From Flavobacteriales bacterium UBA3364 (GTDB taxonomy: Bacteria; Bacteroidota; Bacteroidia; Flavobacteriales_F; PHOS-HE28): a DNA stretch of 64,000 nt. The translations under genes and the position numbers were made by a program. The notes beneath the pieces are model-generated. The model did no database searches. It saw only the letters and a list, made by a program, of their open reading frames with translations, and was not told where the DNA came from. Each line of letters begins with the position of its first letter. Within the stretch, counting starts at the first letter, position 1. This document shows, piece by piece, positions 5,598 to 33,375 of the stretch. The stretch covers positions 5,638 to 69,637 of the forward strand of contig DEQO01000196.1 of assembly GCA_002360495.1 (NCBI GenBank), written 5' to 3'.

Positions 5598-6062
5598 ATG
5601 AACTACATGGATCTTGCATCACTTTCGGAATGGGCAGGGGTGACTGCTGCAATCGCAACAACCATTAGCATACCTGTTGCGGCATTCGCACTCCTGCAAT
5701 CACGACGACAAGCCCAGACGGACTTTGAAGACAACCTTAACGCGCAGTACAGAGCAACTATCCGCGAAATTCCAATAGATGCTCACTTGGGAAAGCCCTT
5801 GAATGAGGATTGCCTGAAAAAGAACATGCTTGACTTCTATCACTACATCGACTTGACCAACGAGCAGGTCTTCCTGAGAATGGAAGGCCGGGTAAGTACG
5901 AAGACCTGGAGAAACTGGTGCGACGGCATCAGTAACAATCTTGCGAAGCCTGGTTTTGCAGAAGCGTGGAAAGTGATCAAGGTCTGTTCCGAAAACAGCT
6001 TTAATGAATTGCGCAGACTTGAGAGCGACGGATACAAGAGCGACCCGAAGAGATGGACATGA
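5598..6062 (+). CDS. hypothetical N-terminally membrane-anchored protein
   Basis: ORF 5502..6062; the ATG at 5598 gives MNYMDLASLSEWAGVTAAIATTISIPVAAFALLQSRR (one TM helix) followed by a soluble ~120-aa domain. Lies in AT-richer DNA. No family recognised with confidence. Confidence 0.45.
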   Translation: MNYMDLASLSEWAGVTAAIATTISIPVAAFALLQSRRQAQTDFEDNLNAQYRATIREIPIDAHLGKPLNEDCLKKNMLDFYHYIDLTNEQVFLRMEGRVSTKTWRNWCDGISNNLAKPGFAEAWKVIKVCSENSFNELRRLESDGYKSDPKRWT

Positions 6063-10756: not shown

Positions 10757-13700
10757 TCAATCCTGCCCTCTCTGGAACATGACCCTCGGCAACACAACCT
10801 CAATATGCCTCTTCTTCTCTTCCTCGTACCACTCCACCAGGTAGCCCACTGAACCACCGTTCACCCGATAGCCGCGCTCCGCTAAGCGCTCGATCACTTC
10901 GGTCTTGAACTTGCGGGAGAAGAGCACCACGGGACCATCGTTCGTTCCCAAGCCAGGCGCTGGGCCGTTCGCAAAGTCGATGCTGCAAGGCACAAGTCCA
11001 TCGCCCGTAAGCAAGCGCTGGATGCGACCTTGGTTGTAACCGCTTGACCCTAGGTTCACGTCCTTCATACCTGCCACGTAGACCAGCTGCTCCGGCCACG
11101 GATGAAGCATACCGTCGTGGTTGCGCTCGAGTTGTGGGCTGTTGAAGTCCGTAGCGAACGGTTGCAAGGCATGCACGACCAAACGCTCCTTCGCCCTAGT
11201 GCAGGCCACATAGAGCAAGCGCTTGTCCTCCGCTCGTTCCATGGGCTGATCATCGAGCAGCACGAAGACGTTGTCGAATTCGCGCCCTTTTGCCTTGTGC
11301 ATCGTGCTTACCATCACGGTCCGCTCCTCGCCGCGCACGGCATCGCTGATGCGGATCTCCCGCAAGAACGCCGCCCATTCACCGGTATCGTATCGCTGTT
11401 GATAGCGTTCATCGAACAGCGCGAACAGGTCGCGCAGGTCGGCGAGCAGCGGCATTTCGCCCATCTCGCTCAGGAACTGCTCCCGCACCTTCAGCCACAA
11501 CTCCTTGGGCACAACACCCGCTTGCGGGAACTCGGCCCGAAGCAGCTGCATGAACCGGCGCAGTTCGCGTAGTCTTCCGGTCTCGAAGCCATCAGAACCT
11601 CCCACATACCGGGCCTTTACGCCGCGTTCCATCAGCATGGATGCGGCCATCAGCGCTTCACTGTTGGTGCGCGTGAGCAAAGCGGTCGTGCCCGGATAGG
11701 AGCGACCGATCAGGTCTTCCACAAGCCCTGATGTATGGAAGCCGCCCGTGTAGGTGATCACCCGTTGGAGACCCACATTGTCTTCATGGGCCGCCATGTG
11801 CTCCCCCGCTTTGATGCGGCCAGGAATGCCCTCTACTAGATGGTTGGTCAGATCGACCAGAGTGGCCTTGCTACGGTAGTTCGTGAGCAGGCTGTGGCTG
11901 GTTGCATTGAAGGTGCCTCGGAAGGCGGCCATGAACTCCGGCGATGCACCGCGCCACGCATAAATGTTCTGGTCATCGTCGCCCACGGCGATGATGCGAG
12001 GGGATTCGGCCACCTTGCCAATGGCCAGGATCAAGCGCCACTGGTCCGCATCCACATCCTGGAACTCGTCCAACATGATCACGCTCTTGTTCGCGATCAT
12101 CGAAAGGTCCGTCTCCTGCTTCTCGATCGCATCGATGGCACGGCCGATGACCGTTTCGGACTTCTCCAGGTCGCCCAGCTGGCCAGTGAGCTCGAAGCAC
12201 AGGCTGTGGAATGTGGTGACCTTGATGAGCCCGCGATACTCGGGCACCAGCGTATGGATGCGACTGCGCAACTCAAGGGCGGCGGCGCGCGAATAGGTCA
12301 GCATCAGGAACTGCTCGGGCTTCACATCCTCCAGTAGCAGCAGGTTGGCCGCCTTGTGGACCAGCACACGCGTCTTTCCGCTTCCCGGACCGGCGGCGAC
12401 CAGGATATGCTGCGACTTGTCCTGCACCACGGCCTGCTGTGAGGTGTCCAGGTCACCCACCAGCTGCCGGAAGCGCTCAGCACTGATCGACCGCGTGATC
12501 TCCGTACGCCGTTGGGGGAAATACCTGCGGATGAAGGCCTCGTGGTCCAGCTTGAAGTAGTCGTCAACGTAGCTCAGGGCCGCCTCCACGCTTTCGCTGC
12601 GCTTGCGGGCATACTCGCCCACCATGTGTATCTGTTCCGTGCGGTTGCGGTAGTGCAGGTCCAGGTGGGCATAGTCGTCCCGGGTAAAACGTTTTCGGTT
12701 ATCCTCCTCCAGTCGGTCCACGTTCAGGCGCTGGTAGATCACCATGAAGCCATCCTCCAGGTTGATGACCTTGCCCTCGTGCAGGTAGAGCAGCGCTTTC
12801 TCCACCGCGCGCAGGTCCTGCTCCTGAGCGAAAAGCCCTTCCCTCAACTTGTCGCGCAGGCCGACCATGGAAAAGGGCACGGGCATTTCTTCCTTGCGCT
12901 CCTGCTGGCTTTGCTGGGCGGTGGTGGCCAGGTCCTGCAAATGGTCCAGGCACGCGATGGCGAGCGTGTGGCGCTCCTCCATCTCGCGGCGCATGTCATC
13001 TGGATCGGAGCGTGGGGTGATCCGGTAAGTCTGCTCCGTCCTGGCCACGCGCGCGGTGCGGATGAAGCCCCGCCGCTTCCAATAGTTGAGAAGCCCGTGT
13101 ACATCGGCGGGTTGACTGTCGACACCCGCGTCAATGGCAGCCTGGTTGAGGGCCCGCAAGCTGGTTGTAAAGGGTCCCGTGCCAAGCTGGGTGAGCAGCA
13201 CCTTCTCAAGACTCATCAGAGACTTCAACCGTGCGATCGACCCCACCCTTGGCCGTAGGTCAACGAAGGCGGTGAGGTCCTCATGGTCGTCCAGCACCTT
13301 CAACTCTCGCAGTAGTTGCACCGTGCGCATCACCTGGCGCAGCTCCATACCGAGTTGCTCCGCCATTTCGTCCAACTTGGTCTCATCGTGCTTGATGATG
13401 CGCTGCAGCACCCGTGCACAATCTTCCTTCTGCTTGGCCGTGAGTACAGCACTGCCATGCACCAACCGCAAGGCGCTTTCCAGGTCTTTCGTCAGCAGGC
13501 TGGTGGCGAACACCTGCGGACTGTTCAGCGTGCGCTTCAAGTAGCCCCGTTCCTCCAGAGCGGCAAGCGAGGCGGTCACCTTGTTCTGCAGGTCCTTGAT
13601 CTCCCGGTCCCAGCCGGCTGCCGTGGCCAGTTCCAACGCCGACTTGCTCACCCGGTCGCGGAAGCGCGTCATGCGCTTGATGGCACGCCAGATCTGATCG

Positions 13701-15625: not shown

Positions 15626-15694
15626 AGGGAAATCACCCTACACAAGCATCGTACCTGAACCGTACTGCTCGAAGATCAAGTGCAGGATATTCTA

Positions 15695-15835
15695 CATCAG
15701 CGTCTTGGTCTTGCCTACACCGGCAGCCGCCAATACCAGCAGGCGCTTCTCCTCGCTCAGCACGGCGGCGCGCTGCTCGGGATTGAGGCCGTGGAGGAAC
15801 AGGGATACGGGAGCCTTAGTAAGCTGGTCGCTAAC
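15695..15835 (-). pseudogene. relic of a UvrD-like helicase N-terminus (Walker A region)
   Basis: Directly after the GmrSD stop and in the same frame: VSDQLTKAPVSLFLHGLNPEQRAAVLSEEKRLLVLAAAGVGKTKTLM, then TAG. There is no start codon. The frame continues as NILHLIFEQYGSGTMLV, TAG, then runs into the giant helicase ORF. Confidence 0.6.
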
Positions 15836-17701
15836 CTACATGGGCCACAGCGATTTGGCCCGCTTCCATAGTTCTGTGCCACGTCTCAATATGCTGTCCT
15901 CATCCCAGGTTTCCGCATCATGAAGCTGCTGATTGATCGGAAGCAATGACTTGCGAAGGATCGCCTGTCGCTTTGCAAGCCAAGGTCCATTTGAGACAGA
16001 GGTGTTGAGCGACCCCGTGATGATCGTAAGATTCCCGAGCGAGTGCAATGCACTCTCCCTTGCTCTTGTTGCGGTTGCCCGCGCGTCACTGTCATCCGCA
16101 TCAGCGAGCTCGAATTCTGTCATACCTACTTGACCATCTGGCAATGGCCAGTGCTTCCTCCATTCTTGAGGTAAAAGGTGTTCTACGGTTGACGCTCCCT
16201 TGATCTCGATATCCTCTGATTGCTTACTCAGGTAGGTCTTGTTCAATCGTTCGAGCACTAGCGCCAGCTTGGGATTATTGAGCCGCTCGTAAACCGCGCC
16301 ATGAATGAATTCCTCTTTGAACACGGCGTCATTGGGCCACACCGTCGATTCCCCGGAGAGCCCAAGGAAGTACGCCTTCACGGCTTCTATTGTCGGCGCT
16401 TGCCCGTCAAGCTGGCGCACAAGGGTCAGGAAGATGCGGTTGTAGTTCTTGGTCGTATACCCACAGAACGCACGGCGCAGGATGTACGATTCCAGTATTG
16501 ACGCTACTTGCGGCATCAATTCGCGGCCCGCTTCCGACTGCATGAGGTGGAGCAAGAGCGGATAGACCGTACGTACCTCAAATGCCTCGAGAAACCTGAA
16601 CAACTCGTACAATTTATCCTCGGCATGTGGTGCTATGATGCGCCTGAAGTCATCACCTTGCCTATCCAATGCCATCAGCTCTTCGGCGACACTACCGTAA
16701 GGCTGCTTCTTCTCAATCCACCATTTGTACTCGGTGAATAGATGCTTGATCGGCACATCCGTTCCACGCTTGCTCGCCAGGAAGTGCTGGAGGAAGAGAT
16801 CGCTTCGCGGCCGGAACTGCCTGCCCTGTGAGACTTCTTCTCTCCAGAAGTCCTCATCGAACTTTCGCCAGTGCTGGTCATAGAGTTGCTCCATGGGCTC
16901 GCCCTTGCGCGCGGCTCGTAGGAAAATGAAATTTCTCAATAGGTCGGCAGGAAGCAATGGCTCACCGCGAGCATTGAGCGTCTCGAAGATCACCTGTGCA
17001 TCGTCCTCTTTGTCCAAGTCGATCACCACGACCTGAAGGGCGCTCTTCATGGCCTGGAAACACTCCTCCATTCGCGATGCAATGGGACTATCGGCTTGCA
17101 GCGGCGGTTCATCCTCATGGCCGATAAAGAAGTCATAAAGCCTATCGTCGAAGTAGATGTAGGCCTCAACCATACGAGGCCGGGGGTCTGGCTTTCGTTG
17201 GTATTTCCTGCGGACCAATGGATGGCGTTTGTCGAGTTCATCTCGAGACCCCGAACGCATGACGTCAGCGAATTGCTTGCGATCTAATTGGGTGGGCCAC
17301 ACCTTGTGCATGTCCACATCAGGATTCGCCATCATTCCCTTGTTCACCGTGTACGCCTCGCACTCCTTCGCTAATTCCTCGCAGCCCTGCTCCTTTGCGA
17401 AATCGCGGAATGCAGCAAGGAATATCTGTAGCGTGGTCAGTCGCTGCTGCCCGTCGATTGCCTGGCGCCGTTCCACATGCGTTGTCGGGGTCTGCTTCTG
17501 ATCGAAAACCATCGCGCCCAGAAAATGTACCGGCGTATCGCGTCGACCTTCAACATAGTCCTCGAACTTCCTGCTGATGTCCTCCCAAAGGGGCTCCCAG
17601 TGCTTCTCCTGGCTCCATACGTACTGCCTTTGGAATAGGGGTACTTCCAGTTGCATCTTTTTCTCGAAGATGCCGATGAGAGATACCGCGTTCGCATTCA
17701 T
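15836..17701 (-). CDS. GmrSD-family type IV (modification-dependent) restriction enzyme, DUF262 + DUF1524
   Basis: N-terminus: VPLFQRQYVWS, IDGQQRLTTL (DUF262/ParB-like). C-terminus: VEHLLPQEW ... HSLGNLTIITGSLNTSVSN (DUF1524 His-Me finger). Confidence 0.85.
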   Translation of the reverse strand: MNANAVSLIGIFEKKMQLEVPLFQRQYVWSQEKHWEPLWEDISRKFEDYVEGRRDTPVHFLGAMVFDQKQTPTTHVERRQAIDGQQRLTTLQIFLAAFRDFAKEQGCEELAKECEAYTVNKGMMANPDVDMHKVWPTQLDRKQFADVMRSGSRDELDKRHPLVRRKYQRKPDPRPRMVEAYIYFDDRLYDFFIGHEDEPPLQADSPIASRMEECFQAMKSALQVVVIDLDKEDDAQVIFETLNARGEPLLPADLLRNFIFLRAARKGEPMEQLYDQHWRKFDEDFWREEVSQGRQFRPRSDLFLQHFLASKRGTDVPIKHLFTEYKWWIEKKQPYGSVAEELMALDRQGDDFRRIIAPHAEDKLYELFRFLEAFEVRTVYPLLLHLMQSEAGRELMPQVASILESYILRRAFCGYTTKNYNRIFLTLVRQLDGQAPTIEAVKAYFLGLSGESTVWPNDAVFKEEFIHGAVYERLNNPKLALVLERLNKTYLSKQSEDIEIKGASTVEHLLPQEWRKHWPLPDGQVGMTEFELADADDSDARATATRARESALHSLGNLTIITGSLNTSVSNGPWLAKRQAILRKSLLPINQQLHDAETWDEDSILRRGTELWKRAKSLWPM

Positions 17702-18603
17702 GCTTGAGCCCGGTTAAGGTGATTAATGATTGCCTCCAATGCTCCCTTGCGACCGATGATCAACTTCTCAGCCTCACTGAACTGCCGGATGTTGTAATCG
17801 AGGACTTCAGCCTCCGCCTCACTTCCTTTCAACTCAAACCGGTAGATCCGATTGGGATCCGCACCAGGAACTCCAGGTACGAGTTCTACACGATACTCTT
17901 CGTTTAGTGGTAGCGACAATACGTCGGTGACATTGAACGGGGCAACGATCCCAGCATTTGGCGGATAGTGTATTCGCGTTGGATTATCCGACGAAATGAA
18001 TCCTGTCGTACCAACCACCCGCGTCACACTAATTGAGTCACCCATTCGTACTTGCTGAAGACGAAAACCCGTGGTGAACTGAGTGGTGAGGACTGCGTCG
18101 TTGTTCGTGTTCGCTTGGTACTCTGCCCAAAGCTGGTCCGCTGATTTCCCCTCGAGCTCATACTCTTTGCCATCCAGCACACCAATCTTAGGCTGTGACC
18201 CATCCAGCCGTCTTGCATTCGCCATAAAGTCGATCGATTGCCGCATGAGTGAATCAACGGCATTCACTATTCGGCGTGAGCGAAAGAGAAGTGAACAGAC
18301 GGTACCAACAACCAGCTCTCTGAGCCGATCATCGATGCTCTCTTGTCTATCATCAACGAGGTTCTTGTAAACTTCATCGTAATGGTCTTCCCAGAGGGTC
18401 TTGTATGTGGTGTCCAGCAGTTGTGCATCCTCGGGTGCAACACTGACCAATTTGTACCCATCGATTTCACTACAGAGCTTCTTCGTCGAGGTGTCGCTGA
18501 TGATGCGAGAGCCTTTCTTCACGTAGTGAACGGTCGTATCCGGGCGCACCAGACGCTTCATATACCCTTGCGGTACGAAGTGATGGTTCCTTGGAGTGCT
18601 CAT
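17698..18603 (-). CDS. DUF4238-like protein
   Basis: N-terminus MSTPRNHHFVPQGYMKRLV matches my memory of the DUF4238 signature H[HY][FY]VPQ.Y[LM]. Its stop overlaps the GmrSD ATG (ATGA at 17698-17701). Confidence 0.55.
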   Translation of the reverse strand: MSTPRNHHFVPQGYMKRLVRPDTTVHYVKKGSRIISDTSTKKLCSEIDGYKLVSVAPEDAQLLDTTYKTLWEDHYDEVYKNLVDDRQESIDDRLRELVVGTVCSLLFRSRRIVNAVDSLMRQSIDFMANARRLDGSQPKIGVLDGKEYELEGKSADQLWAEYQANTNNDAVLTTQFTTGFRLQQVRMGDSISVTRVVGTTGFISSDNPTRIHYPPNAGIVAPFNVTDVLSLPLNEEYRVELVPGVPGADPNRIYRFELKGSEAEAEVLDYNIRQFSEAEKLIIGRKGALEAIINHLNRAQA

Positions 18604-18648: not shown

Positions 18649-21184
<2,536 letters not shown>

Positions 21185-21192
<8 letters not shown>

Positions 21193-22776
21193 CGTTTGCC
21201 TCTGGCGCCGCGTTCATCGGACGGATTATTGACTCGATGAAGACCTTCTCTGCTTCAGTGATTCCGTACTTCTTGTAGAGCTCGGCGTCGGTCCAGTCTC
21301 GATCCCAAGTTTGCTGTGGCACCCAGGTATATGTGGACTTGTTTGCGTCTTGCGTGATCTTCCGAAGTGAGATGATGAAGCGGGCAAAGCGGGTCCGTAG
21401 GTATGACTGCACACTCTTGGCAGCCCTCTCACTGTCCACAAAGAAGAAGAGATAGGTCTGTGTGCAGACTGAAGGAGGTGCGGCAATCAGTGAAGGGCCA
21501 AGCACCATGTCCACACCGCTTTTCTCCCTCTCCCTTCCTGAACCCGTTTTCGGCACTAAGACCTTCCACTTGTCTATCAAATGTTGACTCTTCGGAACCT
21601 CTGAGCGCTTCATCCAACCAACTTGGCGCTTGGTCTTGTCGTTGTAGTACAGCGCTATGTCATTCTTCCCTGCGGTCGGTCGGTGGCCATCGAAGTTTGA
21701 AGTCATGCCGAATTCCTTGTCAGCGGATAGAAGTTCCGTCAATGACGGCTCCTTCTTGGAGAGCACTTTGTTCAGGATAGCGAGTCCACGGACATCCCGC
21801 ACTAGAACGTCGAACTCGTCAAGCCACCGTTGATGTGGACCGTAGGTCTGACCGTCACGCACCAGTGTCGTCGCGCACTCACCATTGTGATGAGCATCCC
21901 ATAGGAAGTAGCAAATGCCTCCGTTAATCCCGACAGAAGGAAAAAGCTCCGCTGCATTCAGATAGTCCACTAACGCAGCCATTCGGCGGTCACTCAACAT
22001 CGTTTTACGGAATGCGTCAAGGCCCAGCCCTCCAGCCATCCAGCGTGACGGGATGATCATGGACAGAAATCGTGGTTCAAGCTTCTTTGCTTGTTCAACG
22101 AAGTGCTGATAGATCGGCACGTCGCGCGTTCCACCATCCGCTCCTAGCTGGTAGGGCGGGTTACCGATGATCACGTCGAATTGCATGTTCTTTCCAAAGA
22201 TTTCGGTTATCCGAGCCTTGATGTCTTTCGTGTGTATGAGCGCGTAGGCGTGGGTCTCGTACCCTTCGCCCCGGTCCAGCGCATTTTGGCTTGCCCCGCA
22301 GTAGGTACACTTCTCATCCTTCCACGTATGCTCCATCCGCTCGAACCAGATATTGCCCGCATCGGTGGCGAAGCTGCTGCCGATGGAGTGCGCGCCCTTG
22401 GCGTGCTTGGAGCAATACACGCTGCGCCGTGCCAGCAAGCTGGTGAGGTGCGTGATGCCGATGCCGAAGACCTGCTTGGTGAGGATGTGGTCCACGCGGG
22501 TGCGCAGGTCGGGTATCTGGTCCTTCAGGCCTTCGGTAAGGCGGCTGGTGATCTCGCGCAGGAAGACCCCGCTCTTGGTGCAGGGGTCAAGAAAGGTCAC
22601 GGTGGGGTCCGCCCATATGTTGGCTCCTTTGTTGTTGGCAGCCCAAGCTTCGGCCAGCGTGTCCAGCATGCGGTTCGCGAAGTCCGGCGGTGTGAAGACC
22701 TCATCGTTGCTGAGGTTTGCGATACAGGTGAGCACATCGGGGTTGCGCCCGCGCAGGGTGAAGCTGGCTTGGGTGC

Positions 22777-22780
<4 letters not shown>
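21185..22780 (-). CDS. gamma-class N6-adenine DNA methyltransferase (Eco57I-type) with C-terminal specificity region
   Basis: VFTPPDFANRMLD (motif X), FLDPCTKSGVFLREI (motif I), FDVIIGNPPYQLGADGG (motif IV), plus about 300 aa of C-terminal TRD-like sequence. Confidence 0.8.
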
Positions 22781-23430
<650 letters not shown>

Positions 23431-23752: not shown

Positions 23753-26557
23753 TCAAAAGCTGATATACTCTTCTTTATAACCTCTCTTGAGCGTCTCGCT
23801 CTTTTTCTTTCGGTAGTAGTGGTACTTCCGCATGTTATCCAAACAACGGTAGATCTTCTGCAATTGGCCATAGCAGTCCACGAACTGCATATGGTCTTTC
23901 GGGTAACGCTGCTTGATCTTGCGTAGCAAATTGAGTGCACGGGATTCGGCCTCCTGACATCTTTCGCTCTGAACAACGAGGTCAATGGCATATTTCTCGT
24001 ACTCCAACTCCTGCAAAGCGTCCAAATGGGCCAGACCTTTGAGCGAGTCCGCCAATTGGTGGAGCATCTGGACGTCTCTGCTGTTCCACCTTCCGCAACT
24101 GGCCGCTCGGATCGCCAGCAGGGCAAACTTGGCTTCACCAGGTCGGTACAGGTCACTCCCTGTATTCCATGCCTGGTGCGAAAGCGAGTCGGCCGCCCTG
24201 CTGTAACCTTCGGCATTGCGGAGGATCAATGCGAGTCGCAGTTGAGCGTCCACCACGTGCCGGCTCGGACCACTGTGCGCGTCTTCTTCAATGGTGAGGG
24301 CAGCGTGCGCGTGACGGATAGCTTTAGAATCCTTCCCGGCCGTCGCATAGAGTTGGGCCAGCAGATCGTGATCCGCGACCAACTCGCTATGGTCCAGCCC
24401 CTGGTCGGCAGTATCCAAGGTCAATGCTGTCCGGGCAGCTTTGATAGCCTCATTGAAATTGTTCAAGGCGGCATACCTTTTCGCCATGCTGTAATACATG
24501 CCCGATCCCGCTGCGGTATCCAATTGCTCCACCACGTTCAGTTCAAGGTCGAGGGCCCTTCTCTCGTGGGTTATAGCGGCTCGCTTGTTCCCTGCGCATC
24601 GGTGTACCTCAGCTATATCTTTGTGGATCTCGGCCAGACTGACCTTGTTGGTGGTAAGGTCCAAGGCCTTAAATAAGGAGTTCAACGCGGCATCATATTC
24701 CCCTCGTTGGATGCTGATATTCGTCTCGATACTCCGTATCGTGGTCCGTATGTCATCCCATAGGATCTCATCGTATCCCTGGATGTCCGAACATAATTCA
24801 TCTGCTTGGTCCAGTTCGTCCAAGCCCTGACAGACCGCAGCCAAGTTCATCTTGGCCTGCAGCACCTCCGGATGCGCTGGTACACGGTTGAGCATGCTCA
24901 GGCGCATGGCCTCTTCCATATGTGGCTTCGCCTCCATGGGCCGCCCTTGATGAAATAGCAAGGCGGCATAGGCCTGCTGGGCGCCGGCTAGCTCCGGATG
25001 GTCTGGTCCGGAGATCTTCAACCTCATGTGGAAGGCTTTTCGGGTATAGGCCTCCGCGAGGCGATACTCCCGCAATCGGTAATGGACGCCGGCAGCATCC
25101 ATGTAGCATTGGGCAAGTTCTTCGCCAGGGGCGCTCTTTGTGTAGGTCTCCCAAATAATGATCACCTGGCGCAACATGTCCCTGGCTTTCTCCAGTTCAC
25201 CAATTTCCGCCTCAACAATGGCCAACGCCCTCATGAGGGACAGGTAAACTCTAGGGTATCCTGTCCAGTGCACGGCGGTATCCTTGGCGATAGTCTCGAA
25301 GAGGACCTTCGCTTGCTCGAATTCCTTGTTCTGTGCTAGAATATCACCGCGTAGGAATTGGATACAAGCCCGTTCCGATGCATCGATACTGTCGGACGCA
25401 TCTACGACAGCAATGGCCATTTGCAGCAGAGAATCAGCCTCGTAGTACCGCCCGATACCTGCGAGCACTTGCCCTTGTTCGGTCAAAAGAACGGCTCGGA
25501 CCTCGTCCCAAGCAGCGTGCCGGATGGGGCAATAGGAATGTGCTGTCCGCAAATGATCCAAAGCGGCCTGGTAATGTCCCATGCGTTTCTCGATCTCTGA
25601 AAGGGACCGGAGCCTGCGTATCAGGCCCAAGGTATCCTCCCCAAGATGCTTCCTGTGTATCTCCCACGCTTTGTAGGCACAGGCGCGCGCGCTATCCAGC
25701 TTGTATGCCGTGAGCAAGAGGTCGTACTTGATGCGGTACGCGCTCAAGAGTTGGCGGAAGCGTTCGCGGGCCTTTTCTTCGGCCTGCTCGGCATCGTGCA
25801 AGGCGGCATCCAGTTGCTCGTTGCTCAGGATGTGCAGCACAGCCTCGAGGCCCGCCTTGGACTCCAGTTGGCGCACTGCATTGCGCACCAGGTCCGAGCA
25901 AAGATCGAGGTTGAGGCGGGCCAGGTAGGCGGCCATGGTATCCAATTGCTGGCTTACCAGGGCATATTTGCGTTCAATGCTATCGCGTTCCAAGGTTAGG
26001 CGATCCAATTCTGCACGGCTGAGGTCCTTTTGGGCGCGCAGGCGATCGTTCTCCCCCACAGCCAGCCGATAGATTTCCTCGTTCTCGGCTTCAAGCAGCC
26101 CTGCGTAGCGCAGCTTTGCCGCACGCAGTTCACCCTTATCGCACACGGTGATGGTCATGGCCTCCTCGGTGGCCAGGGGTACACGGGCCGCTGCGAGCAC
26201 ATCGGTGTTGACGACTTCGATAGGTCGGCTACCATGCGCTGTATCGCCCACGGCGATATCGGCGCGCTCACCCGGTAACTTGGTGGCGAAGCGCAAGGTG
26301 AAGGCCCCCGCCGAAGTGGACCGCGTGGCGTTGGCATCGGAAGCCTTCACCAACACACCAACCGCAGGTGCCAGGCCGCTGTTCTGGAACACGATGCGCC
26401 CCGATAGCGTAGCTGACTGCGGCAGGGCCTGGTCAGCCATGGATATGGCGAGTACCAGTAGGAGCAGTCGCAGCCGGAGGACAGCCCTGAATCCTGCAAC
26501 GATCGGTCCGTTCACTGCCTGTTCGCTTTGAAGTATTTCGCTCAGCCCTGCGGTCAT
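23753..26557 (-). CDS. exported beta-sandwich (CarboxypepD_reg-like) / coiled-coil / TPR-repeat protein, paralog 2
   Basis: ATG at 26557 (the ORF-track start at 26578 is GTG). Hydrophobic leader LRLRLLLLVLAISMA, then LSGRIVFQNSGLAPAVGVLVKASDANATRSTSAGAFTLRF, a coiled coil containing QQLDTMAAYLARLNLD, then about 650 aa of TPR-like helical repeats. Confidence 0.75.
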   Translation of the reverse strand: MTAGLSEILQSEQAVNGPIVAGFRAVLRLRLLLLVLAISMADQALPQSATLSGRIVFQNSGLAPAVGVLVKASDANATRSTSAGAFTLRFATKLPGERADIAVGDTAHGSRPIEVVNTDVLAAARVPLATEEAMTITVCDKGELRAAKLRYAGLLEAENEEIYRLAVGENDRLRAQKDLSRAELDRLTLERDSIERKYALVSQQLDTMAAYLARLNLDLCSDLVRNAVRQLESKAGLEAVLHILSNEQLDAALHDAEQAEEKARERFRQLLSAYRIKYDLLLTAYKLDSARACAYKAWEIHRKHLGEDTLGLIRRLRSLSEIEKRMGHYQAALDHLRTAHSYCPIRHAAWDEVRAVLLTEQGQVLAGIGRYYEADSLLQMAIAVVDASDSIDASERACIQFLRGDILAQNKEFEQAKVLFETIAKDTAVHWTGYPRVYLSLMRALAIVEAEIGELEKARDMLRQVIIIWETYTKSAPGEELAQCYMDAAGVHYRLREYRLAEAYTRKAFHMRLKISGPDHPELAGAQQAYAALLFHQGRPMEAKPHMEEAMRLSMLNRVPAHPEVLQAKMNLAAVCQGLDELDQADELCSDIQGYDEILWDDIRTTIRSIETNISIQRGEYDAALNSLFKALDLTTNKVSLAEIHKDIAEVHRCAGNKRAAITHERRALDLELNVVEQLDTAAGSGMYYSMAKRYAALNNFNEAIKAARTALTLDTADQGLDHSELVADHDLLAQLYATAGKDSKAIRHAHAALTIEEDAHSGPSRHVVDAQLRLALILRNAEGYSRAADSLSHQAWNTGSDLYRPGEAKFALLAIRAASCGRWNSRDVQMLHQLADSLKGLAHLDALQELEYEKYAIDLVVQSERCQEAESRALNLLRKIKQRYPKDHMQFVDCYGQLQKIYRCLDNMRKYHYYRKKKSETLKRGYKEEYISF

Positions 26558-26587
26558 GGTGCCGAACGAACTTACCACACCGGACGA

Positions 26588-29347
26588 TTATGCCGCGAGC
26601 TTTCCATGCAGTCCGGCTCTCCAGTCCTCAAATCTTGAGCGCAGGCGTGCTGCCCTGCGGCGGTGCTTGCGCTCATTGCGCTGGTCATTCAAGGTCATAA
26701 ACATGTTAGCGAGGTATTCATGAACACGGATGAGCGAAGTGCTCCGCTTGCCATAGTGCTGCCTGGTGCGTTGTAGGACATCGAGCCCAAGTTCCACCGC
26801 CTCTTCATATCGGCCGAGGGCGAAGAGTGCCCGGCTCCGTTCATTATCAAACCGCAGGCTATCGAGTACGTCGTACGCCCCAACGTGGTGACCGCCCATG
26901 CTCTCCCTCAAGCGATCCAGGGCGTAAGCGGTATCGGCGCGGGCAACGCGCCTTGCGGCTTTCAAGAGCAGGAGCCGTACCCGTGGATCGGGAGAAGGGT
27001 CCAGGGATCTTTGCATGTCGACCGCTTCACGAAGAAGGATGAGCGAGGTGTCCTTGCGGTCCAAGTCCCAGAAGACATCGGCCACCCGGTCAATAGCACT
27101 GACCAGGTGGGTATGCGGTTCCGAATGGGACCGATGCTCAATAGCGAGCTGTTCAAGGGCGTGGGTGTAGCCTTGCGCACAACTGTCCACGTCGCACAGG
27201 ACGTTGGCCAGCTCATCATGTATATCCCCCAGTTCGTCGTGATCCAATGCCACTTCCCCGTTGGCCAGCGATAAGGCCGCCCGAAATTCCTTCAGCGCGG
27301 CTAGTTCGTCATCCAGCCAGCTCAGCTGTCGGCCGCGGGCCATGTGCAATGTGTGGTCGTCCGGGTATTCGGCCTCCGCTAGGGCGTAGTGACGGCATGC
27401 TTGAATACGTTCACGTTGTGCTTCGTCAGGTCGCTTCAAACAATTCAACACGAAGGCCCTGCTGGCATGGGCCTCGGCGATGAAGGAACGGTTCGTACAC
27501 GATGCTTCGCCCCATAGGGCCATCAGCGTATCAACGTACGCCAAAGCGACGTCGTGCTGCCCGGTGAAGGTTGCGTTCTCTGAAAGCAACTCAAGCGTTG
27601 AGGCCGTGCGGTGGGTAATTTGCCGGCTATCCTGGCGCAGGGCACGCTGTGCATAGGGTCGGGCTTCATAGAAACGGCCCAGGCGGTGTAGGATGGCCGC
27701 ATGGTTACGGTAGGCCTGCACCAGATCCAGGTGGTGCTTTGCCACTACGGGTTCCATTAGGCGGATGGCATCGGCGTTTGCTTGGAGTGCCTCCTCATAG
27801 CGTTCACCGTCCATGAGGATAGCCGCGATCAGCACTTGGTTCTGGGCCAGCCCGACATGGCCGGGAGGAAGGAACTTCGTGTTCAATGCCATCGCACGCT
27901 TAGCGTAACCCTCTGCTAGGGCTAACTTATTCTGGGCATAAGAGCATCCTGCCAGATTAAAATAAAGACCGGCCAATTGCATGTCCCTGGGTAAGGGGAT
28001 ATTCTCCCAGAGTAATGCACTCATGCGCAGGTAATGGTATGCGCTGTCCAGGTCATTCCTTGATTCATAGTAAGCCACACCTATGTCCGCCAGGATACTA
28101 CAAACCAGAAAACCATCATCGGGCATCGTGAAGGTGTATTCTTCGATGATGTGCTTGTTCAAGGCCAGGAATTCCTCCATACGGCCTAAGTGCCCCAGAC
28201 AAACACCCCGCTCCCGCTCCGCTTGGATGTATCGCAGAGTGTCCACTGTTTCCACTCGTTCCAATGTGCGGAGTTGCATATCCGCGTGGCGCAGGGCTTC
28301 ATCATAGGAGCCCAGGTATATGGAACGCGCAGCGGCCAGCCAGTAAAGGTTTGCCAGTACACGCGGGTCCAAAGCTGGCATCAGCTCACCGAGCTCGACT
28401 GCTCGCTGCCAGTGCACTCGGGCACTATCCCATTGGGAGGTCATGAACTCGGTTCCTTCCAGCAAGACCAGGGTTTGTATCAGGCTGGCAGTATCGGCTG
28501 GCAGGTAGTGTTCGCGGAGCCTTAGCAGGGCTCGCAAATCGTGAACGGAACTATCGAATTGCCCATCTGCGAAGAGTGCTTGGGCCCGCACCCCGTAGGC
28601 TTCAGCCAGCTGCTCGAATCGATCAGTGGCTTTACGTTGCATGCCCTCAGCCTCTTCAAACGCAGCGTTCAACGCCTGGCTGGTGAGGATATCCAGGATA
28701 ACAGTTATATCACCGTTCGTTTCCGAGCGATGTAAGGCCTCGCGCACAAGGGCCGAAGCCTGGTCCAGGTTGATCCGGGCAAGATAAGCGGCCATGGTGT
28801 CCAACTGCTGACGCATTGAACGAAAGCGCTCTTCCAAACTATCCCGTTCATGAACGAGCGCATGAACCGCCGCAGCGGATAGATCACTCCGCTTCAATGC
28901 TACTTCATTGGCAGCCAAGGCTTCGTTATGTCTTCGGGAGCTCTGCCGCTCCAATAAGTTGTAGAAGCGCAACTTGGCCTCGTATAGCTGTCCCTTGTCA
29001 CAGACCACGATGACAAGCGGCTCCGCGGATGCGTTCCCTAGCCGCGCGCCCTCCAACACTTCACGGTTCACCACTTCAATTGCGCGACCAAAGCGTGCAG
29101 TGTCACCGACGGTAAGGTTTACACGGTCACCGGGAACTTTGCTCGCATACGTCAATGTAAAGGCCCCGGAGATCGTGGATCGAGTAGCATTGGCATCATC
29201 CGATTTCACCAGCACACCGATCGCTGGCTGTGAACCGCTGTTCTGGAATACGATGCGTCCTTGCAGTTGTGTGCCTTGTGCAAGGAGTGCAGGGGCAAAC
29301 AGCAGCCAAAGCCACCCAACCAGTGCGCTGTTCACCTGCCCAACCAT
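26588..29347 (-). CDS. exported beta-sandwich / coiled-coil / TPR-repeat protein, paralog 1
   Basis: ATG start. Leader ALVGWLWLLFAPALLAQ, then LQGRIVFQNSGSQPAIGVLVKSDDANATRSTISGAFTLTY, QQLDTMAAYLARINLD, then a long TPR-like region. Overlaps the upstream gene by 16 nt. Confidence 0.75.
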   Translation of the reverse strand: MVGQVNSALVGWLWLLFAPALLAQGTQLQGRIVFQNSGSQPAIGVLVKSDDANATRSTISGAFTLTYASKVPGDRVNLTVGDTARFGRAIEVVNREVLEGARLGNASAEPLVIVVCDKGQLYEAKLRFYNLLERQSSRRHNEALAANEVALKRSDLSAAAVHALVHERDSLEERFRSMRQQLDTMAAYLARINLDQASALVREALHRSETNGDITVILDILTSQALNAAFEEAEGMQRKATDRFEQLAEAYGVRAQALFADGQFDSSVHDLRALLRLREHYLPADTASLIQTLVLLEGTEFMTSQWDSARVHWQRAVELGELMPALDPRVLANLYWLAAARSIYLGSYDEALRHADMQLRTLERVETVDTLRYIQAERERGVCLGHLGRMEEFLALNKHIIEEYTFTMPDDGFLVCSILADIGVAYYESRNDLDSAYHYLRMSALLWENIPLPRDMQLAGLYFNLAGCSYAQNKLALAEGYAKRAMALNTKFLPPGHVGLAQNQVLIAAILMDGERYEEALQANADAIRLMEPVVAKHHLDLVQAYRNHAAILHRLGRFYEARPYAQRALRQDSRQITHRTASTLELLSENATFTGQHDVALAYVDTLMALWGEASCTNRSFIAEAHASRAFVLNCLKRPDEAQRERIQACRHYALAEAEYPDDHTLHMARGRQLSWLDDELAALKEFRAALSLANGEVALDHDELGDIHDELANVLCDVDSCAQGYTHALEQLAIEHRSHSEPHTHLVSAIDRVADVFWDLDRKDTSLILLREAVDMQRSLDPSPDPRVRLLLLKAARRVARADTAYALDRLRESMGGHHVGAYDVLDSLRFDNERSRALFALGRYEEAVELGLDVLQRTRQHYGKRSTSLIRVHEYLANMFMTLNDQRNERKHRRRAARLRSRFEDWRAGLHGKLAA

Positions 29348-30876
29348 AGCTCGATAGGACCTGACCGCGGGCGGTATTCTTCGGTGATGGAACTTCCGTC
29401 GGGTGCAGTGACAGTGAGGAGATGGAGCGGGCGTCGCATATGGTAGGGGAGCTCCACTTGGAACGTGCCATGCATATCGGTCTGTACAACCGTGTCTGTA
29501 CTTACCTGGACCGTGGCATGGGGGAGGGGAGCGAGCCCTTTGGCATTGCGCAGTATACCCATGACCTTGGCCAGTTCTTCGTCAGGCACCAGTTCGATCG
29601 CGTGATCTCCCTCGGCAATAACAAGCGTGTCCAATCGGCTTTCCCAATACATGCCATCCACCCGGATACCGACCGCAGCGCCCCGCAGCTCGGCTGGGAG
29701 ATCGCGGAAAATGATATCTGTCGCCGAGGTGGCCTTCTTGGAAATAGAGCCACGCTCGGTAATGATGGTGATCTCCATTGGGAACGTGAATGCCGGATAG
29801 TCGAGCGCAAGTGCAAGGTCGGCCGGTCGATGCAGGCTTAGGCTCATTGTAAACGGCGCCTGGCTTTTCCAAATGGACCAGACCACGAGGGCCACTAGAA
29901 CAGCGGCTGATCCGAAGAGCACGATGACCCGGTGTTTGTGGATCCAATTCTCCCGCAGTGCACTGTCGAAACCGCGGCCGAGGATGAGAAACTCCTCTGC
30001 CGTGACACGGATATTCGCAATATCCGCGCGCGAACGCTTGATCTCCTCGATGATCACATCAAGACGTGCCTTTAGTTCAACCGTCCAGGAGTCCAACGCG
30101 GCGCGCACTACATTCTCGGCCATTGCCTCGTTCCCTTTGCCGAACCAGGCATTGATATCGTCCGGCGTGATGTAGTGTGACGAGCCCTTCGGTTCCTCTA
30201 GCGGTTTTGATATCCGGACAAGGAGCTGCTCGTTCTGTAGTTTCAGGTCTTCGATCCCCTGTAGTATGGCGTTATGCAGTTGCTTGTTATAAGCGATCAG
30301 TGCCGCATTGTTCTCCGGCTGTTTCAGTAGTTCCCCAAGGCATAGCTGCAACTGTTCCGCGAAATGCGAGCGCACGAATTCCTCGAACGCTTGCGGAACA
30401 GGATCACGCCTTTCATCGGTCTGGAGGACCTTCCATCGGTCGATCACAACGTCTGCATCGAATGGTCTTCCGATCATCTGCATCACCTCCTCGTTGTCGA
30501 CCTTGAGCAATTTGAAGTTGGATGCTATCCGTTTCCGCATCAGGGCGACCATGGCTGCGCTCTCCTTTCTTTCCTGTTTGGTACTCAACTGTTCCGCATA
30601 CAGCGTCCCCAGGTTCTGTATGGTCCAATCCAGGGCCTTCATCACGAGCTTCTGTAGGTCGTGGTTAAGCAACGTCGGATGTGGGGAACGGAGGAATGCG
30701 CGTTGGAATTTCCTGTATTCCAAACGGTCGATGTAGCCACTTGCCAGATTAGCGGCGATGTTACCGAACACCGCCTCGACCATCTTGCTGTTCACCACTT
30801 GGCTAAGGCAGGCCAGGCCCGTAGCGAGAGCGATGCTACCGAACTGCGCTGCGACATCTTTGATATTGTCGTTCAT
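29332..30876 (-). CDS. single-pass membrane protein: ~345-aa cytoplasmic helical domain, TM helix, periplasmic beta-sandwich domain
   Basis: ATG at 30876 (MNDNIKDVAAQFG) overlaps the WYL gene stop as ATGA (30873-30876). The ORF-track start at 30963 is TTG. TM helix VIVLFGSAAVLVALVVWSIW. C-terminus GILRNAKGLAPLPHATVQVSTDTVVQTDMHGTFQVELPY is CarboxypepD_reg-like. Confidence 0.7.
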   Translation of the reverse strand: MNDNIKDVAAQFGSIALATGLACLSQVVNSKMVEAVFGNIAANLASGYIDRLEYRKFQRAFLRSPHPTLLNHDLQKLVMKALDWTIQNLGTLYAEQLSTKQERKESAAMVALMRKRIASNFKLLKVDNEEVMQMIGRPFDADVVIDRWKVLQTDERRDPVPQAFEEFVRSHFAEQLQLCLGELLKQPENNAALIAYNKQLHNAILQGIEDLKLQNEQLLVRISKPLEEPKGSSHYITPDDINAWFGKGNEAMAENVVRAALDSWTVELKARLDVIIEEIKRSRADIANIRVTAEEFLILGRGFDSALRENWIHKHRVIVLFGSAAVLVALVVWSIWKSQAPFTMSLSLHRPADLALALDYPAFTFPMEITIITERGSISKKATSATDIIFRDLPAELRGAAVGIRVDGMYWESRLDTLVIAEGDHAIELVPDEELAKVMGILRNAKGLAPLPHATVQVSTDTVVQTDMHGTFQVELPYHMRRPLHLLTVTAPDGSSITEEYRPRSGPIELWLGR

Positions 30877-31772
30877 TCCTTGTACGCGCGTTGGTGGTCC
30901 GTATATCGTACGTCTTGCAATAGAAGCCGTCCACTGTTTACGGACACCCGGTTTGATGTGCAAGCACGGGTCATCCTTAGCTTCCGAGTGGTTCGGACTA
31001 TCCAGAGCCTTCTTAACGCGTTTGGCACGATGCCGCCAAATCCGCCAGTGAGGTGCTTTGTTAAGCCGATCTTCGAGCTAGTAGGACACCGACCCGGTAC
31101 AGGCAGCATGCCCTGGTTGTGGTCCAATTCCACGTTGGTGAGGCCCTTGGTTCCCGCTTTGAGTCCGAATACGAACCAGCGGTTGTTGTCCTGCTTCAGG
31201 TAGTAGGGATGGAGGCGCAGTTTCGTGTGTTTCGCCTGTTTGGATCCTTGGGACTTCACCTCCAGCACCTGTTTGTTGAGGATGGCTTGGAACAGGGTGG
31301 TGATGTGCTCGCTGCCCTTCAGGTAGGGTTTCTCTTCGAACTCGATGATCCGCTCTGCGCCCTGCTTCAACCCGAAGCCTGATTCCAATCGCGCCACCAA
31401 TTCATCCACCCATGCGAACTGCGGCACGCCCTTGAAGCGGTTCAATGTGAGGAGCGATTCCTTCAGCTGACTTGCTTCATGCTCATTGAGCGGCCGCTTG
31501 TTGGTGCTGAAATCCGGCTCGTTGTAGCGGTACCAGACCCGCTTGCCTTCGTTGTGCCGGTCCAAGGGGATGGCCCAGCCTTGGTCACTCTCCATGTACT
31601 TGATGTCTTCGAAGAGCTGGCGTCGACAAATGCCCTTGTCCTTGCCGGTGTGGACGTAGAGCGACTCGTTCACGGCCTCCAACAGGTCCTCCCAGTAATA
31701 CCGCTTGCCCCCAATGGCGAAGCAGCGGTCCAGGGCTTGGTAGCGGATGAGGGCGTGTTTGTTGACGGGCAT
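30873..31772 (-). CDS. WYL-domain transcriptional regulator (wHTH-WYL)
   Basis: N-terminus MPVNKHALIRYQALDRCF is typical of Bacteroidota WYL regulators. WYL core: LRLHPYYLKQDNNRWFVFGL. The last ~90 aa do not resemble the usual C-terminal extension, although no other frame is open there. Confidence 0.75.
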   Translation of the reverse strand: MPVNKHALIRYQALDRCFAIGGKRYYWEDLLEAVNESLYVHTGKDKGICRRQLFEDIKYMESDQGWAIPLDRHNEGKRVWYRYNEPDFSTNKRPLNEHEASQLKESLLTLNRFKGVPQFAWVDELVARLESGFGLKQGAERIIEFEEKPYLKGSEHITTLFQAILNKQVLEVKSQGSKQAKHTKLRLHPYYLKQDNNRWFVFGLKAGTKGLTNVELDHNQGMLPVPGRCPTSSKIGLTKHLTGGFGGIVPNALRRLWIVRTTRKLRMTRACTSNRVSVNSGRLLLQDVRYTDHQRAYKE

Positions 31773-31781
31773 TCCTCAGCT

Positions 31782-32084
31782 TCATCGATACAGATGATCG
31801 ATCCTGTAGACCATGTTCCAGGGCATTACCTGTTTGAATAAGTCAACAGAACCATCAGCCACCAACCCCGCTGCCACCGGACCCCTTGGCTTCGCCAACC
31901 GAATGCTGCCTCCCCGTCCCCGGCCGCTGACCCGAAGGACTTTTGCCAAAAGGCCTTGCCGGGTGGTTGCGTAGGTGGCCGCATCCCAGCCAAGAAGTTC
32001 GCGGGCCTTGCCGTTGCCGAGGTGCTGGTGTTCGGCCAGGAGGGCCGGCAAGGCTTCTTCGTTGCGGGTCAAACCACGGTCCAT
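31782..32084 (-). CDS. putative small winged-helix protein
   Basis: ATG at 32084. The segment GKARELLGWDAATYATTRQGLLAKVLRVSGRGRGGSIRLA looks like a wHTH recognition helix plus wing. Ends 9 nt before the WYL ATG. Composition is GC-rich, so a spurious ORF is possible. Confidence 0.35.
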   Translation of the reverse strand: MDRGLTRNEEALPALLAEHQHLGNGKARELLGWDAATYATTRQGLLAKVLRVSGRGRGGSIRLAKPRGPVAAGLVADGSVDLFKQVMPWNMVYRIDHLYR

Positions 32085-32405
32085 CGGCAACAAGATAGCC
32101 GGAAGGGCTGAAGCGGCGGCGGGGCGGGGGCGGATGGTGGGTCCGCGATCCGGTGCCGCCGGTCTGGGGGCAGTGGCCTATCGGCTTCGCCGCCATTTGA
32201 ACCAGCGTAGCGGATGGCGATCGCTGCCAGGGCCATCGGCATCTGCCTGGAACAAAGGCCGATCACCTTGCCGGGCCGGCGGTCAAATTGCTGCCCGGCT
32301 GCCCGGGTTAGGAACACTTCATGGTTGATCGTTCCCGAGGCCTGACCTTATCCAGAGCATCCCCCGGCTACTACCTTGTAGGATGCCTTGCCGAACTCCC
32401 CGACC

Positions 32406-32666
32406 ATGACCAAGTGTAAGATCTGCCGTGTCCTGGGCAGGAACATCTATGCGCAGCGCGTGGCCTATCGATTCACCCAGGAGTATCTCGCCCATGAAGC
32501 AGGCATCAGCCAGGGCACCTTCTGCAAGGTCGAGAAGGGCGAGATCGAATTACGGGTCGAAGCTGCTCTCCGGATCGCCCGGCTCCTCGGTCGCACGATC
32601 GAGGAGTTGAGTTCTCCGCAGATGGTGGTGAAGTCACTTGAGGATCGGATGCGCAGGGCAGGATAG
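32406..32666 (+). CDS. XRE-family helix-turn-helix regulator
   Basis: ATG at 32406 (the ORF-track start at 32388 is TTG). GRNIYAQRVAYRFTQEYLAHEAGISQGTFCKVEKGEIELRVEAALRIARLLG is a classic HTH_3 pattern. Confidence 0.75.
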   Translation: MTKCKICRVLGRNIYAQRVAYRFTQEYLAHEAGISQGTFCKVEKGEIELRVEAALRIARLLGRTIEELSSPQMVVKSLEDRMRRAG

Positions 32667-32719: not shown

Positions 32720-33159
32720 GAGGCAGCTTCGATCGATATAGGCGGCACCTTCGATCGAACGTGGAGTCAACTTCGATCGACATGGGAGGCACCTTCGATC
32801 GAATGTGGAGGCAGCTTCGATCGACATACGAGGCACATCCGATCGAATGTGGAGTCAGCTTCGATCGCCATAAGAGGCACATCCGATCGAATGTGGAGTC
32901 AGCTTCGATCGACATAGGAGGCACATCCGATCGAATGTGGAGGCAGCTTCGATCGACATAGGCGGCACTTTCGATCGAATGCGGAGGCAGCTTCGATCGA
33001 CATAGGAGGCACATCAGATCGAACGTGGAGTCAACTTCGATCGACATAAGAGGCACCTTTGATCGAATGTGGAAGCACCTTCGATCGGCATAGGCGGCAC
33101 ATCCGATCGAATGCGGAAGCAGCTTCGATCGAAATGGGAGGCACATCCGATCGAACGTG
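32720..33159. repeat. tandem array: 20 x 22-bp units (10 x 44-bp alternating A/B units), each with a CGATCG core
   Basis: A type: GAGGCAGCTTCGATCGACATAG. B type: GAGGCACATCCGATCGAATGTG. In B units, CACAT...ATGTG flank the core as an imperfect 18-bp palindrome. Units were parsed by hand from 32720 to 33159 with few substitutions. Confidence 0.9.
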
Positions 33160-33375
33160 GAGGCCTGCCCGTGCCGATATGCGGTACGGAATAAACTATT
33201 CCGCCGGGAATGGAACACGTTGTATCCCTTGCCCACGGCGGTGTTCCGGGCACTTCGATCATTCCGTGCGGCATATCGGGAGCCGTTCGGAAACCCTCGA
33301 TCCGGCGGCCCGTTGCACACCTCGGATCACCAAAAAACGGTACCCATCCGGTGGCCGGATCCGCAACCGGAAAAC

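Follow-up and report, generated by a model that had tools for sequence, protein, structure and literature searches.

A 64,000-nucleotide stretch of the genome of Flavobacteriales bacterium UBA3364 (assembly GCA_002360495.1, contig DEQO01000196.1, positions 5,638 to 69,637 of the forward strand), hereafter called the window, carries a gene for a membrane protein (component A) and two paralogous genes for predicted exported TPR proteins (components B1 and B2). As judged from sequence comparison with related loci, A and B together are a conserved two-component gene module of the Bacteroidota that has not been described previously. It is very probable that the two components make up a module spanning the cell envelope, and a role in biological conflict or immunity is considered likely. 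The fuller reading, in which A plus B (with or without the second B) is a self-contained trans-envelope sensor-effector module of the biological-conflict (immune) type, is held at slightly better than even, while the specific activation model, clustering through the transmembrane (TM) helix and the coiled coil, is more tentative and is given rather less than even chances.

The genes of the module and the parts of their products are laid out as follows, with positions counted in the window and an arrow for the predicted cleavage site.

29332-30876, minus strand: component A, membrane gene, 514 amino acids (aa), member of the family found with HMMER
30211-30876, minus strand: A residues 1-222, new helical N-terminal domain (N-domain), from the family alignment and homology to STAND N-termini
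29929-30210, minus strand: A residues 223-316, cytoplasmic coiled coil
29860-29928, minus strand: A residues 317-339, single TM helix, from hydropathy and the positive-inside rule
29335-29859, minus strand: A residues 340-514, periplasmic part with PF motif, beta region and CarboxypepD_reg domain (about 431-505)
26588-29347, minus strand: component B1 (TPR1), 919 aa, TPR_12/TPR_10 repeats, with Sec leader 1-23 (ALLA↓Q), CarboxypepD_reg-like beta domain about 24-120, coiled coil about 121-260 and TPR array 261-919
23753-26557 or 26578, minus strand: component B2 (TPR2), paralogue of B1 with the same architecture and order of parts, its leader ending in ALP↓QS

B1 overlaps A by 16 nucleotides (nt) when its ATG start is used and by 4 nt with the GTG start chosen by NCBI. 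B2 is 934 aa long from the ATG at 26557 and 941 aa from the GTG at 26578, and the gap between B1 and B2 is 9-30 nt depending on which of these starts is taken. Searches with Pfam, NCBIfam and PADLOC revealed no NTPase domain in A, B1 or B2 and no match at all for the window copy of A; at the whole locus they returned TPR repeats and a partial WYL domain only. An earlier note on this DNA, made from the letters alone, had seen no familiar effector here and had expected that no known system would match, and these database searches agree with it on both counts.

Word-based searches returned, besides the window proteins, a single orthologous set, at locus L001, whose A and B1 are respectively 64% and 53% identical to those of the window. 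A two-sequence A profile run with HMMER against 1.84 billion cluster representatives recovered 167 proteins at E<1e-3, and an alignment was made of 47 full-length members of the same architecture (about 500 aa), which, apart from the 64% identical L001 orthologue, are 16-28% identical to window A. A hidden Markov model (HMM) of the B N-terminal module, defined as leader, beta domain and coiled coil, was then run over all open reading frames (ORFs) of the related loci. It matched, with E values of 1e-20 to 1e-125, the gene adjoining A in genome loci L001, L009, L012-L018 and L020-L022, and likewise in metagenome loci L027, L028, L029 and L031, its match to window B1 having an E value of 8.7e-118. 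Wherever A is full-length and its flanks can be read, a co-directional B is found beside it, in at least 15 loci. The earlier note had let its proposal stand or fall with conservation of the gene set outside this genome; for A and B this conservation is present.

A single-motif scan of 185,579 species genomes gave 11 genome loci, all of them in Bacteroidota, with carriers in Saprospiraceae, Flavobacteriaceae, Seonamhaeicola, Psychroserpens, Lutibacter, Emticicia and Flammeovirgaceae, including the cultured Seonamhaeicola sp. MEBiC1930 and Psychroserpens algicola Dm15. In MEBiC1930, A and B are encoded at about 1.697-1.701 Mb of NZ_CP104270.1. No A homologue was found in plasmid and phage collections.

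Members of the A family keep one order of parts: an N-terminal helix pair, two motifs, the coiled coil, the TM helix with the PF motif, the beta region and a C-terminal CarboxypepD_reg domain. The N-domain starts with a hydrophobic helix pair rich in G, A, S and T, followed by the motifs LNHDLxK and QLCxGELLK (the second reads QLCFGELLK in the family alignment); its first 45 residues are rich in small residues and have a Kyte-Doolittle value of about 1.5. Over the 47 family members, the TM helix has a mean Kyte-Doolittle value of 2.4, and lysine plus arginine counts are 3.7 ahead of this helix and 1.4 after it. Because of this hydropathy and the positive-inside distribution of charge, an orientation with the N-terminus inside and the C-terminus outside is indicated for A. 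On the periplasmic side, the CarboxypepD_reg domain (PF13620/PF13715) of the window copy is below threshold (E 0.01, 16.6 bits against 32.3), and in the family Pfam recognises it in 26 of the 47 full-length members and in 30 of the 48 proteins that keep the TM and CarboxypepD_reg module, with a best E value of 8.6e-10. When the family profile was compared with PDB, matches to N-terminal domains of SusC/RagA proteins, to carboxypeptidase D and to the coiled coil and TM of VAMP2 were obtained. The profile of residues 1-200 found no match in PDB, and the N-domain belongs to no Pfam family. The tether proposed in the earlier note, with one TM helix joining a cytoplasmic helical part to a periplasmic CarboxypepD_reg-like fold, is thus supported by hydropathy, by the charge counts and by the Pfam matches at family level.

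The B homologues are 577 to 1136 aa long. Their leaders were called by pattern-level inspection of 15 homologues and the two window proteins, and in 15 of 15 homologues the start is MKxx followed by a hydrophobic core and then A/S/G↓Q, with no lipobox cysteine. The window leaders fit this pattern (ALLA↓QG in B1 and ALP↓QS in B2). A glutamine directly after the cleavage site is what the Q-rule for signal peptidase I of Bacteroidetes describes. The B proteins are accordingly described as carrying predicted cleavable Sec leaders, and because of these leaders their beta domain, coiled coil and TPR array are predicted to be periplasmic. Export of the TPR proteins had already been suggested, and the Sec-type leaders ending before a glutamine in all B homologues as well as in both window proteins argue for it.

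Regarding the beta domains, the profile of the B N-terminal domain matched the N-terminus of a SusC homologue in PDB (8aa4_A, E 3.6e-4), and hhalign aligned it with the CarboxypepD_reg domain of A at 92.8% probability (E 3.9e-7). A CarboxypepD_reg-like fold common to A, B1 and B2, as the earlier note had read it, is therefore supported at profile level, by these two comparisons together with the Pfam matches of the family. Between B1 and B2, identity is 61% over the beta domain and falls to 22% over the TPR array. A comparable gradient separates the window from L001, with 86% identity in A residues 1-100, 64-76% in the B beta domains and 40-50% in the TPR arrays; this pattern fits a conserved docking or signalling part combined with a putative diversifying, ligand-binding part. 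At the junction between beta domain and coiled coil, a single cysteine is found in the motif (I/V)(I/V)VCxKG (C116 in window B1, about 29000-29002); of the 16 B homologues that extend to this site, about two thirds have the cysteine, which in the periplasm could link two molecules by a disulfide.

The cytoplasmic N-terminal position of A is, on the evidence of domain composition, a predicted effector or adaptor slot. Residues 1-220, the N-domain, are likewise found at the head of the NB-ARC/NACHT and TPR proteins P0034, P0059, P0140 and P0042 (2079 aa) and one at L019. Conversely, 48 proteins keep only the TM and CarboxypepD_reg module of A, and their N-terminus is EAD11 in 14, TIR_2 in 8 and HEPN_STY4199 in 1, the others having no assigned family. 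The TIR variants retain the W-x-x-E motif. TIR variant P0058 (L011) and EAD11 variant P0128 (L025) each adjoin a gene with the B N-module, which in the case of P0058 is an upstream TPR gene, and immediately upstream of a second TIR variant there is a gene for 838 aa. As set out by Kaur et al. (PMC7159879, PMC8195603), conflict systems are marked by an architecture in which TIR, HEPN or EAD termini are exchanged on a module that stays constant, and the TM and CarboxypepD_reg module with its exchangeable N-termini bears this signature. The N-domain was also considered as a divergent EAD11 and this was rejected, hhalign giving a probability of 0.2%.

Several further arrangements were observed around this slot. 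In P0042 the N-domain is followed by nSTAND3 and NLRC4_HD2-like regions, and P0061, P0095, P0105 and P0144 (about 720-740 aa) begin with the N-domain and have no Pfam match beyond it; the N-domain thus appears, from sequence, to have further uncharacterised partner regions. At L006/L012, where A carries the N-domain, a 454-aa protein with an N-terminal EAD11 is encoded at 15088-16452, two genes downstream of the A-B pair, which hints that such loci may gather extra adaptor-linked components. At L011 a second, divergent TIR protein of 387 aa (4745-5908) lies directly upstream of B and the protein with TIR, TM and CarboxypepD_reg, and HicAB and further toxin-antitoxin genes lie on the same contig. 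Between the TPR arrays of B and those of the STAND proteins with the N-domain, blastp yielded no significant match, and a specific derivation of the former from the latter was rejected on this ground.

In the mechanism proposed here, A and B would associate via their related periplasmic CarboxypepD_reg beta-sandwich domains and their coiled coils, while the TPR arrays would bind a periplasmic cue, for example phage or another assault on the envelope. Clustering would then be relayed via the TM helix and coiled coil, so that the cytoplasmic domains are brought together and activated, by analogy with the oligomerisation of TIR domains and of NLR N-terminal domains. Such clustering would activate TIR or HEPN, or recruit effectors via EAD11. 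In the window the output would be the N-domain, for which a latent effector, acting on membranes or toxic in some other way, is the most probable nature and an adaptor a less probable one; a latent membrane-active effector is plausible because the first 45 residues are hydrophobic and rich in small residues. The two B paralogues may widen or combine specificities. The earlier note had suggested an envelope-spanning sensing or scaffolding complex under WYL control. Its envelope-spanning and undescribed character stands, control by WYL does not, and a sensor-effector conflict system is more probable than a scaffold, because TIR, HEPN and EAD11 occupy the same slot and because the N-domain heads STAND proteins with NB-ARC and TPR.

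Several points weigh against this sensor-effector interpretation. Contact between A and B, binding of a ligand and the activation step are inferences, and the N-domain, which shows no signature of catalysis, may turn out not to be an effector. The AlphaFold2 models, built on alignments of 2-3 sequences, are too poor to support the nature of the N-domain or a complex: that of A consists of helices only with a pLDDT (predicted local distance difference test) of 39, and that of B1 has long helices from residue 118 with a pLDDT of 62.7 (<50 in the beta domain). The n-region of the B1 leader has no basic residue. No validated defence family was matched, PADLOC-DB v2.0.0 at E<=0.01 having no family for A, B1 or B2. 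Among distant relatives the neighbouring genes are variable and mostly housekeeping (MFS transporters, RNA polymerase, Clp), with few defence-like ones (TIR, ThsB-like, AbiLi, OLD/Gabija-like). Finally, association with defence islands is seen for the window and L001 only, and for the family as a whole it is suggestive, not established.

Among known systems, the closest in parts are the STAND/NLR-like proteins (Avs, bNACHT; NB-ARC/NACHT with TPR). Bacteroidota proteins with NB-ARC and TPR share the N-terminal domain of A, and a sensor of TPR_12/TPR_10 type coupled to an effector is also present in A-B, there on separate proteins. STAND proteins, however, have a central NTPase and A-B has none; its sensor is on a separate exported chain, and where STAND proteins use an NTPase to oligomerise, A-B has a TM helix, coiled coils and CarboxypepD_reg domains. 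By analogy, the A-B module may work like an NLR/STAND receptor in which the NTPase is replaced by a membrane-spanning assembly. Toll-like and IL-1 receptors of animals offer another analogy, the TIR variants sharing with them the topology of an extracytoplasmic repeat sensor, one TM and a cytoplasmic TIR; in Toll-like receptors, however, the repeats are leucine-rich and on the same chain, whereas in A-B they are TPR on a separate chain and the window copy is without TIR, and no common descent is implied. Zorya (ZorAB) and Kiwa are inner-membrane complexes for which detection of phage action at the envelope, followed by inward signalling, has been proposed. By PADLOC they have no sequence relation to A-B, and they are not known to have an exported TPR sensor or a swappable N-terminal effector slot.

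The EAD conflict systems (Kaur et al. 2020, PMC7159879; Kaur et al. 2021, PMC8195603) share with A a constant module with variable TIR, HEPN or EAD N-termini, and with A-B a fast-evolving repeat region. They centre on cytoplasmic NTPases (MoxR-vWA, STAND, GTPases), unlike A-B, and a term search of the two papers brought up no component that is periplasmic or has a signal peptide or a carboxypeptidase domain. The A-B cassette, by comparison, encodes no NTPase, and a single N-domain locus was found per genome, a count over 11 genomes for which the single motif used is a weak point. BcTir/BcTpr of Bacillus cereus is a two-gene TIR and TPR operon with reported anti-phage activity (bioRxiv 10.1101/2023.05.26.542521). 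According to its abstract BcTpr has a NADase/glycosidase domain at its N-terminus; a leader, TM or CarboxypepD_reg is not mentioned there, and the host belongs to another phylum than that of A-B. BcTir/BcTpr is cytoplasmic, and identity of A-B with it was rejected on these differences of architecture and phylum. A full-text literature search found no description of the A-B domain combination, and there is a real chance that A-B is a new kind of system, a periplasm-sensing immune receptor.

An alternative that keeps much of this architecture makes the N-domain an EAD-like adaptor, which would bind the identical N-domain of an NB-ARC and TPR STAND NTPase encoded elsewhere and so couple the sensor to an NLR-like machine, or the reverse. 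The presence of the N-domain on both a STAND core and a protein with TM and CarboxypepD_reg is the pattern by which EADs are defined in PMC7159879, EAD11, an accepted adaptor, sits in the same slot of 14 relatives, and an EAD11 protein lies two genes from the A-B pair at L006/L012. However, with about 220 residues the N-domain is far larger than the small EADs of that paper (PMC7159879), the EAD11 profile having 80 positions, and hhalign relates the two at 0.2% only. In addition, the single-pattern scan found one N-domain locus in each of the 11 genomes and nowhere a STAND copy and a TM copy together, and TIR and HEPN, which occupy this slot in other relatives, are output domains and not adaptors. 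An adaptor of this kind is accordingly judged unlikely.

Somewhat less likely still is a function outside immunity, as a housekeeping or stress-signalling complex of the envelope (for example with TonB-dependent transporters, which have this fold at their N-terminus) or as a CpoB-like coordinator of cell wall and outer membrane. The match of the CarboxypepD_reg domains to the SusC/RagA N-terminal domains speaks for it, as do the mostly housekeeping neighbours in distant loci and the fact that the A-B pair was not found in plasmid and phage collections. Periplasmic CpoB has a layout of leader, coiled coil and TPR, and the likeness of B to it points the same way. The resemblance of B to Tol-Pal CpoB/YbgF-like proteins is, however, architectural only: B1 and B2 gave NCBIfam matches below threshold to FxSxx_TPR and Ycf3 and none to CpoB or Tol-Pal families. 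A housekeeping role also agrees poorly with the sparse and patchy distribution (167 clusters among 1.84 billion, and 11 loci in 185,579 species genomes by the single-motif scan), with variable neighbourhoods, with TIR, HEPN and EAD11 swapped into the cytoplasmic slot, with an N-domain common to STAND NTPases and with a cassette of foreign composition lying within restriction-modification (R-M) loci.

The reading from which the earlier note had started, a WYL regulator of the BrxR/CapW type at the head of a five-gene operon that builds an envelope scaffold, is largely refuted and is now considered very improbable. The two genes concerned lie upstream of A:

30873-31772, minus strand: WYL ORF, 299 aa, truncated, outside the conserved module
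31782-32093, minus strand: small ORF, 103 aa, outside the conserved module

The ORF positions bear out five co-directional minus-strand genes with the coordinates and overlaps first reported, and the tight packing, including a genuine ATGA overlap of WYL stop and A start at 30873-30876, favours a WYL-led operon. Moreover, WYL residues 1-217 (31122-31772) share homology with WYL regulators of Bacteroidota, with identities of up to 42% (Chryseobacterium, by tblastn against plasmids), a homologue also sits in a Runella type III-B CRISPR locus, and read-through transcription from the WYL promoter is possible. Nearly all of the tblastn alignments, however, end at query residue 217. Two intact proteins, from Chryseobacterium (329 aa) and from Runella (325 aa), were then used to search the window DNA, and homology ended at '...NVELD', at about 31122; one long alignment with Runella in the plasmid search was dismissed as low-identity padding. 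The missing C-terminus was absent from all frames (tblastn with the intact homologues, and Pfam on the other two frames), the tail of 82 codons (30876-31121) had no match in any frame, and the Pfam WYL match covers profile positions 1-53 of 70. Compared with an intact regulator, consisting of a winged helix-turn-helix (wHTH), a complete WYL domain and a C-terminal dimerisation domain, the window copy is homologous to the BrxR/CapW type over its N-terminal two thirds only, lacking the end of the WYL domain and the entire C-terminal domain.

Composition agrees with this boundary. The G+C contents at codon positions 1, 2 and 3 (GC1, GC2 and GC3) are 0.57/0.33/0.81 over the N-terminal 217 codons, with strong coding periodicity, and 0.54/0.51/0.60 over the last 82, flat in every frame, so that these last codons look non-coding and the ATGA overlap is read-through into spacer. 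The GC3 of WYL (0.81) is close to that of the neighbouring R-M genes (0.84-0.85), compared with about 0.65 for the cassette. The close relative L001 has no WYL gene and has hsdR upstream of A instead, and WYL was not recurrent among 91 neighbours of distant relatives (families seen at least twice, among the matches listed); neither L001 nor the related loci showed a conserved linkage of WYL with the genes that it was thought to head. Since WYL is truncated, resembles the R-M genes in composition and is missing from L001, where homology to the window starts at the ATG of A, it is on this comparative evidence a bystander, apparently neither head nor regulator of the A-B module. The small ORF does stand 9 nt before the WYL ORF, as claimed, while its designation as a wHTH did not hold: no match was found in Pfam, NCBIfam or PADLOC, even at E 10, and its G+C by codon position (0.65/0.48/0.67) shows weak periodicity. 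It is called as a gene by metagenome pipelines.

Turning to the insertion of the cassette, blastn between the window and L001 gave homology beginning exactly at the ATG of A (30876 aligned to 3880). In L001 the A-B cassette lies between a type I hsdR (upstream) and hsdM/S (downstream), so that the two copies are embedded in two unrelated R-M systems. From these comparisons we conclude that A-B1-B2 is a putative mobile cassette inserted in a WYL-headed R-M-like locus, where it would have cut off the 3' end of WYL. The surroundings in the window, downstream of the cassette, comprise the following.

18649-23430, minus strand: R-M-like flank with a 217-aa methyltransferase (MTase) fragment, a 531-aa Eco57I-type MTase and an 847-aa T5orf172 and ResIII helicase (Pfam, PADLOC)
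10757-18603: further island genes, namely a 1622-aa fusion of DEAD/Helicase_C and UvrD-type parts, GmrSD and a DUF4238 protein

GmrSD, a type IV restriction enzyme, matches PADLOC mREase_IV at E 1e-88, and with the Eco57I-type MTase and the helicases in the vicinity (Pfam, PADLOC) the cassette does lie in a defence island, as had been proposed. The GC3 of A, B1 and B2 is 0.63-0.67, that of the MTase fragment and helicase 0.84-0.85 and that of dnaG 0.91, and GmrSD resembles the cassette with its value of about 0.65. Because GC3 differs between cassette and GmrSD, WYL with MTase fragment and helicase, and dnaG, the island is a patchwork of separately acquired pieces. The MTase at 21185-23430 is split into the 217-aa and 531-aa ORFs, which overlap by 4 nt, each have an AdoMet-binding motif and differ strongly in GC3 (0.84 and 0.69 respectively), which a simple frameshift would explain less well than an R-M gene that is a mosaic or has been rearranged. 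A sigma-70 promoter scan of the interval between B2 and the MTase gave nothing, the sigma-70 model being ill-suited to Bacteroidota.

At the island edge, between an XRE-type helix-turn-helix gene (32388-32666, plus strand) and dnaG, 10 tandem copies of a 44-bp unit (32720-33164) match at 86% and show a 132-bp higher-order period; the long ORFs across this array on both strands are probably repeat artefacts. A 626-aa protein with a C-terminal CHU_C domain (type IX secretion) is encoded at 3417-5297 and marks the host as a member of the Bacteroidota, despite a G+C content of 0.53-0.67 in 2-kb segments, which is high for that phylum.

To our knowledge, the prokaryotic immune sensors characterised so far nearly all work in the cytoplasm. 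If the sensor-effector interpretation of A-B is true, bacteria would be able to detect an attack before or during the crossing of the envelope and to signal inward via an exported repeat sensor and a cytoplasmic effector, with a topology convergent with that of animal Toll-like receptors. In its boldest form, which is speculative and rather improbable, A-B would represent an NTPase-free, trans-membrane branch of NLR-like immunity with the logic of Toll-like receptors. An exported TPR receptor would detect an invader or envelope damage in the periplasm, dock via CarboxypepD_reg domains and coiled coils, and switch on a cytoplasmic TIR, HEPN or EAD-recruited effector, the output in the window being a hitherto unknown domain for cell death, about 220 residues long and beginning with a hydrophobic helix pair, that is also used on NB-ARC and TPR receptors. 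The new N-terminal domain, common to bacterial NB-ARC and TPR proteins, is a candidate death or adaptor module in its own right. The cultured carriers Seonamhaeicola sp. MEBiC1930 and Psychroserpens algicola Dm15 make the hypothesis directly testable, and for the TIR variants loss of NAD+ would provide a simple biochemical read-out.

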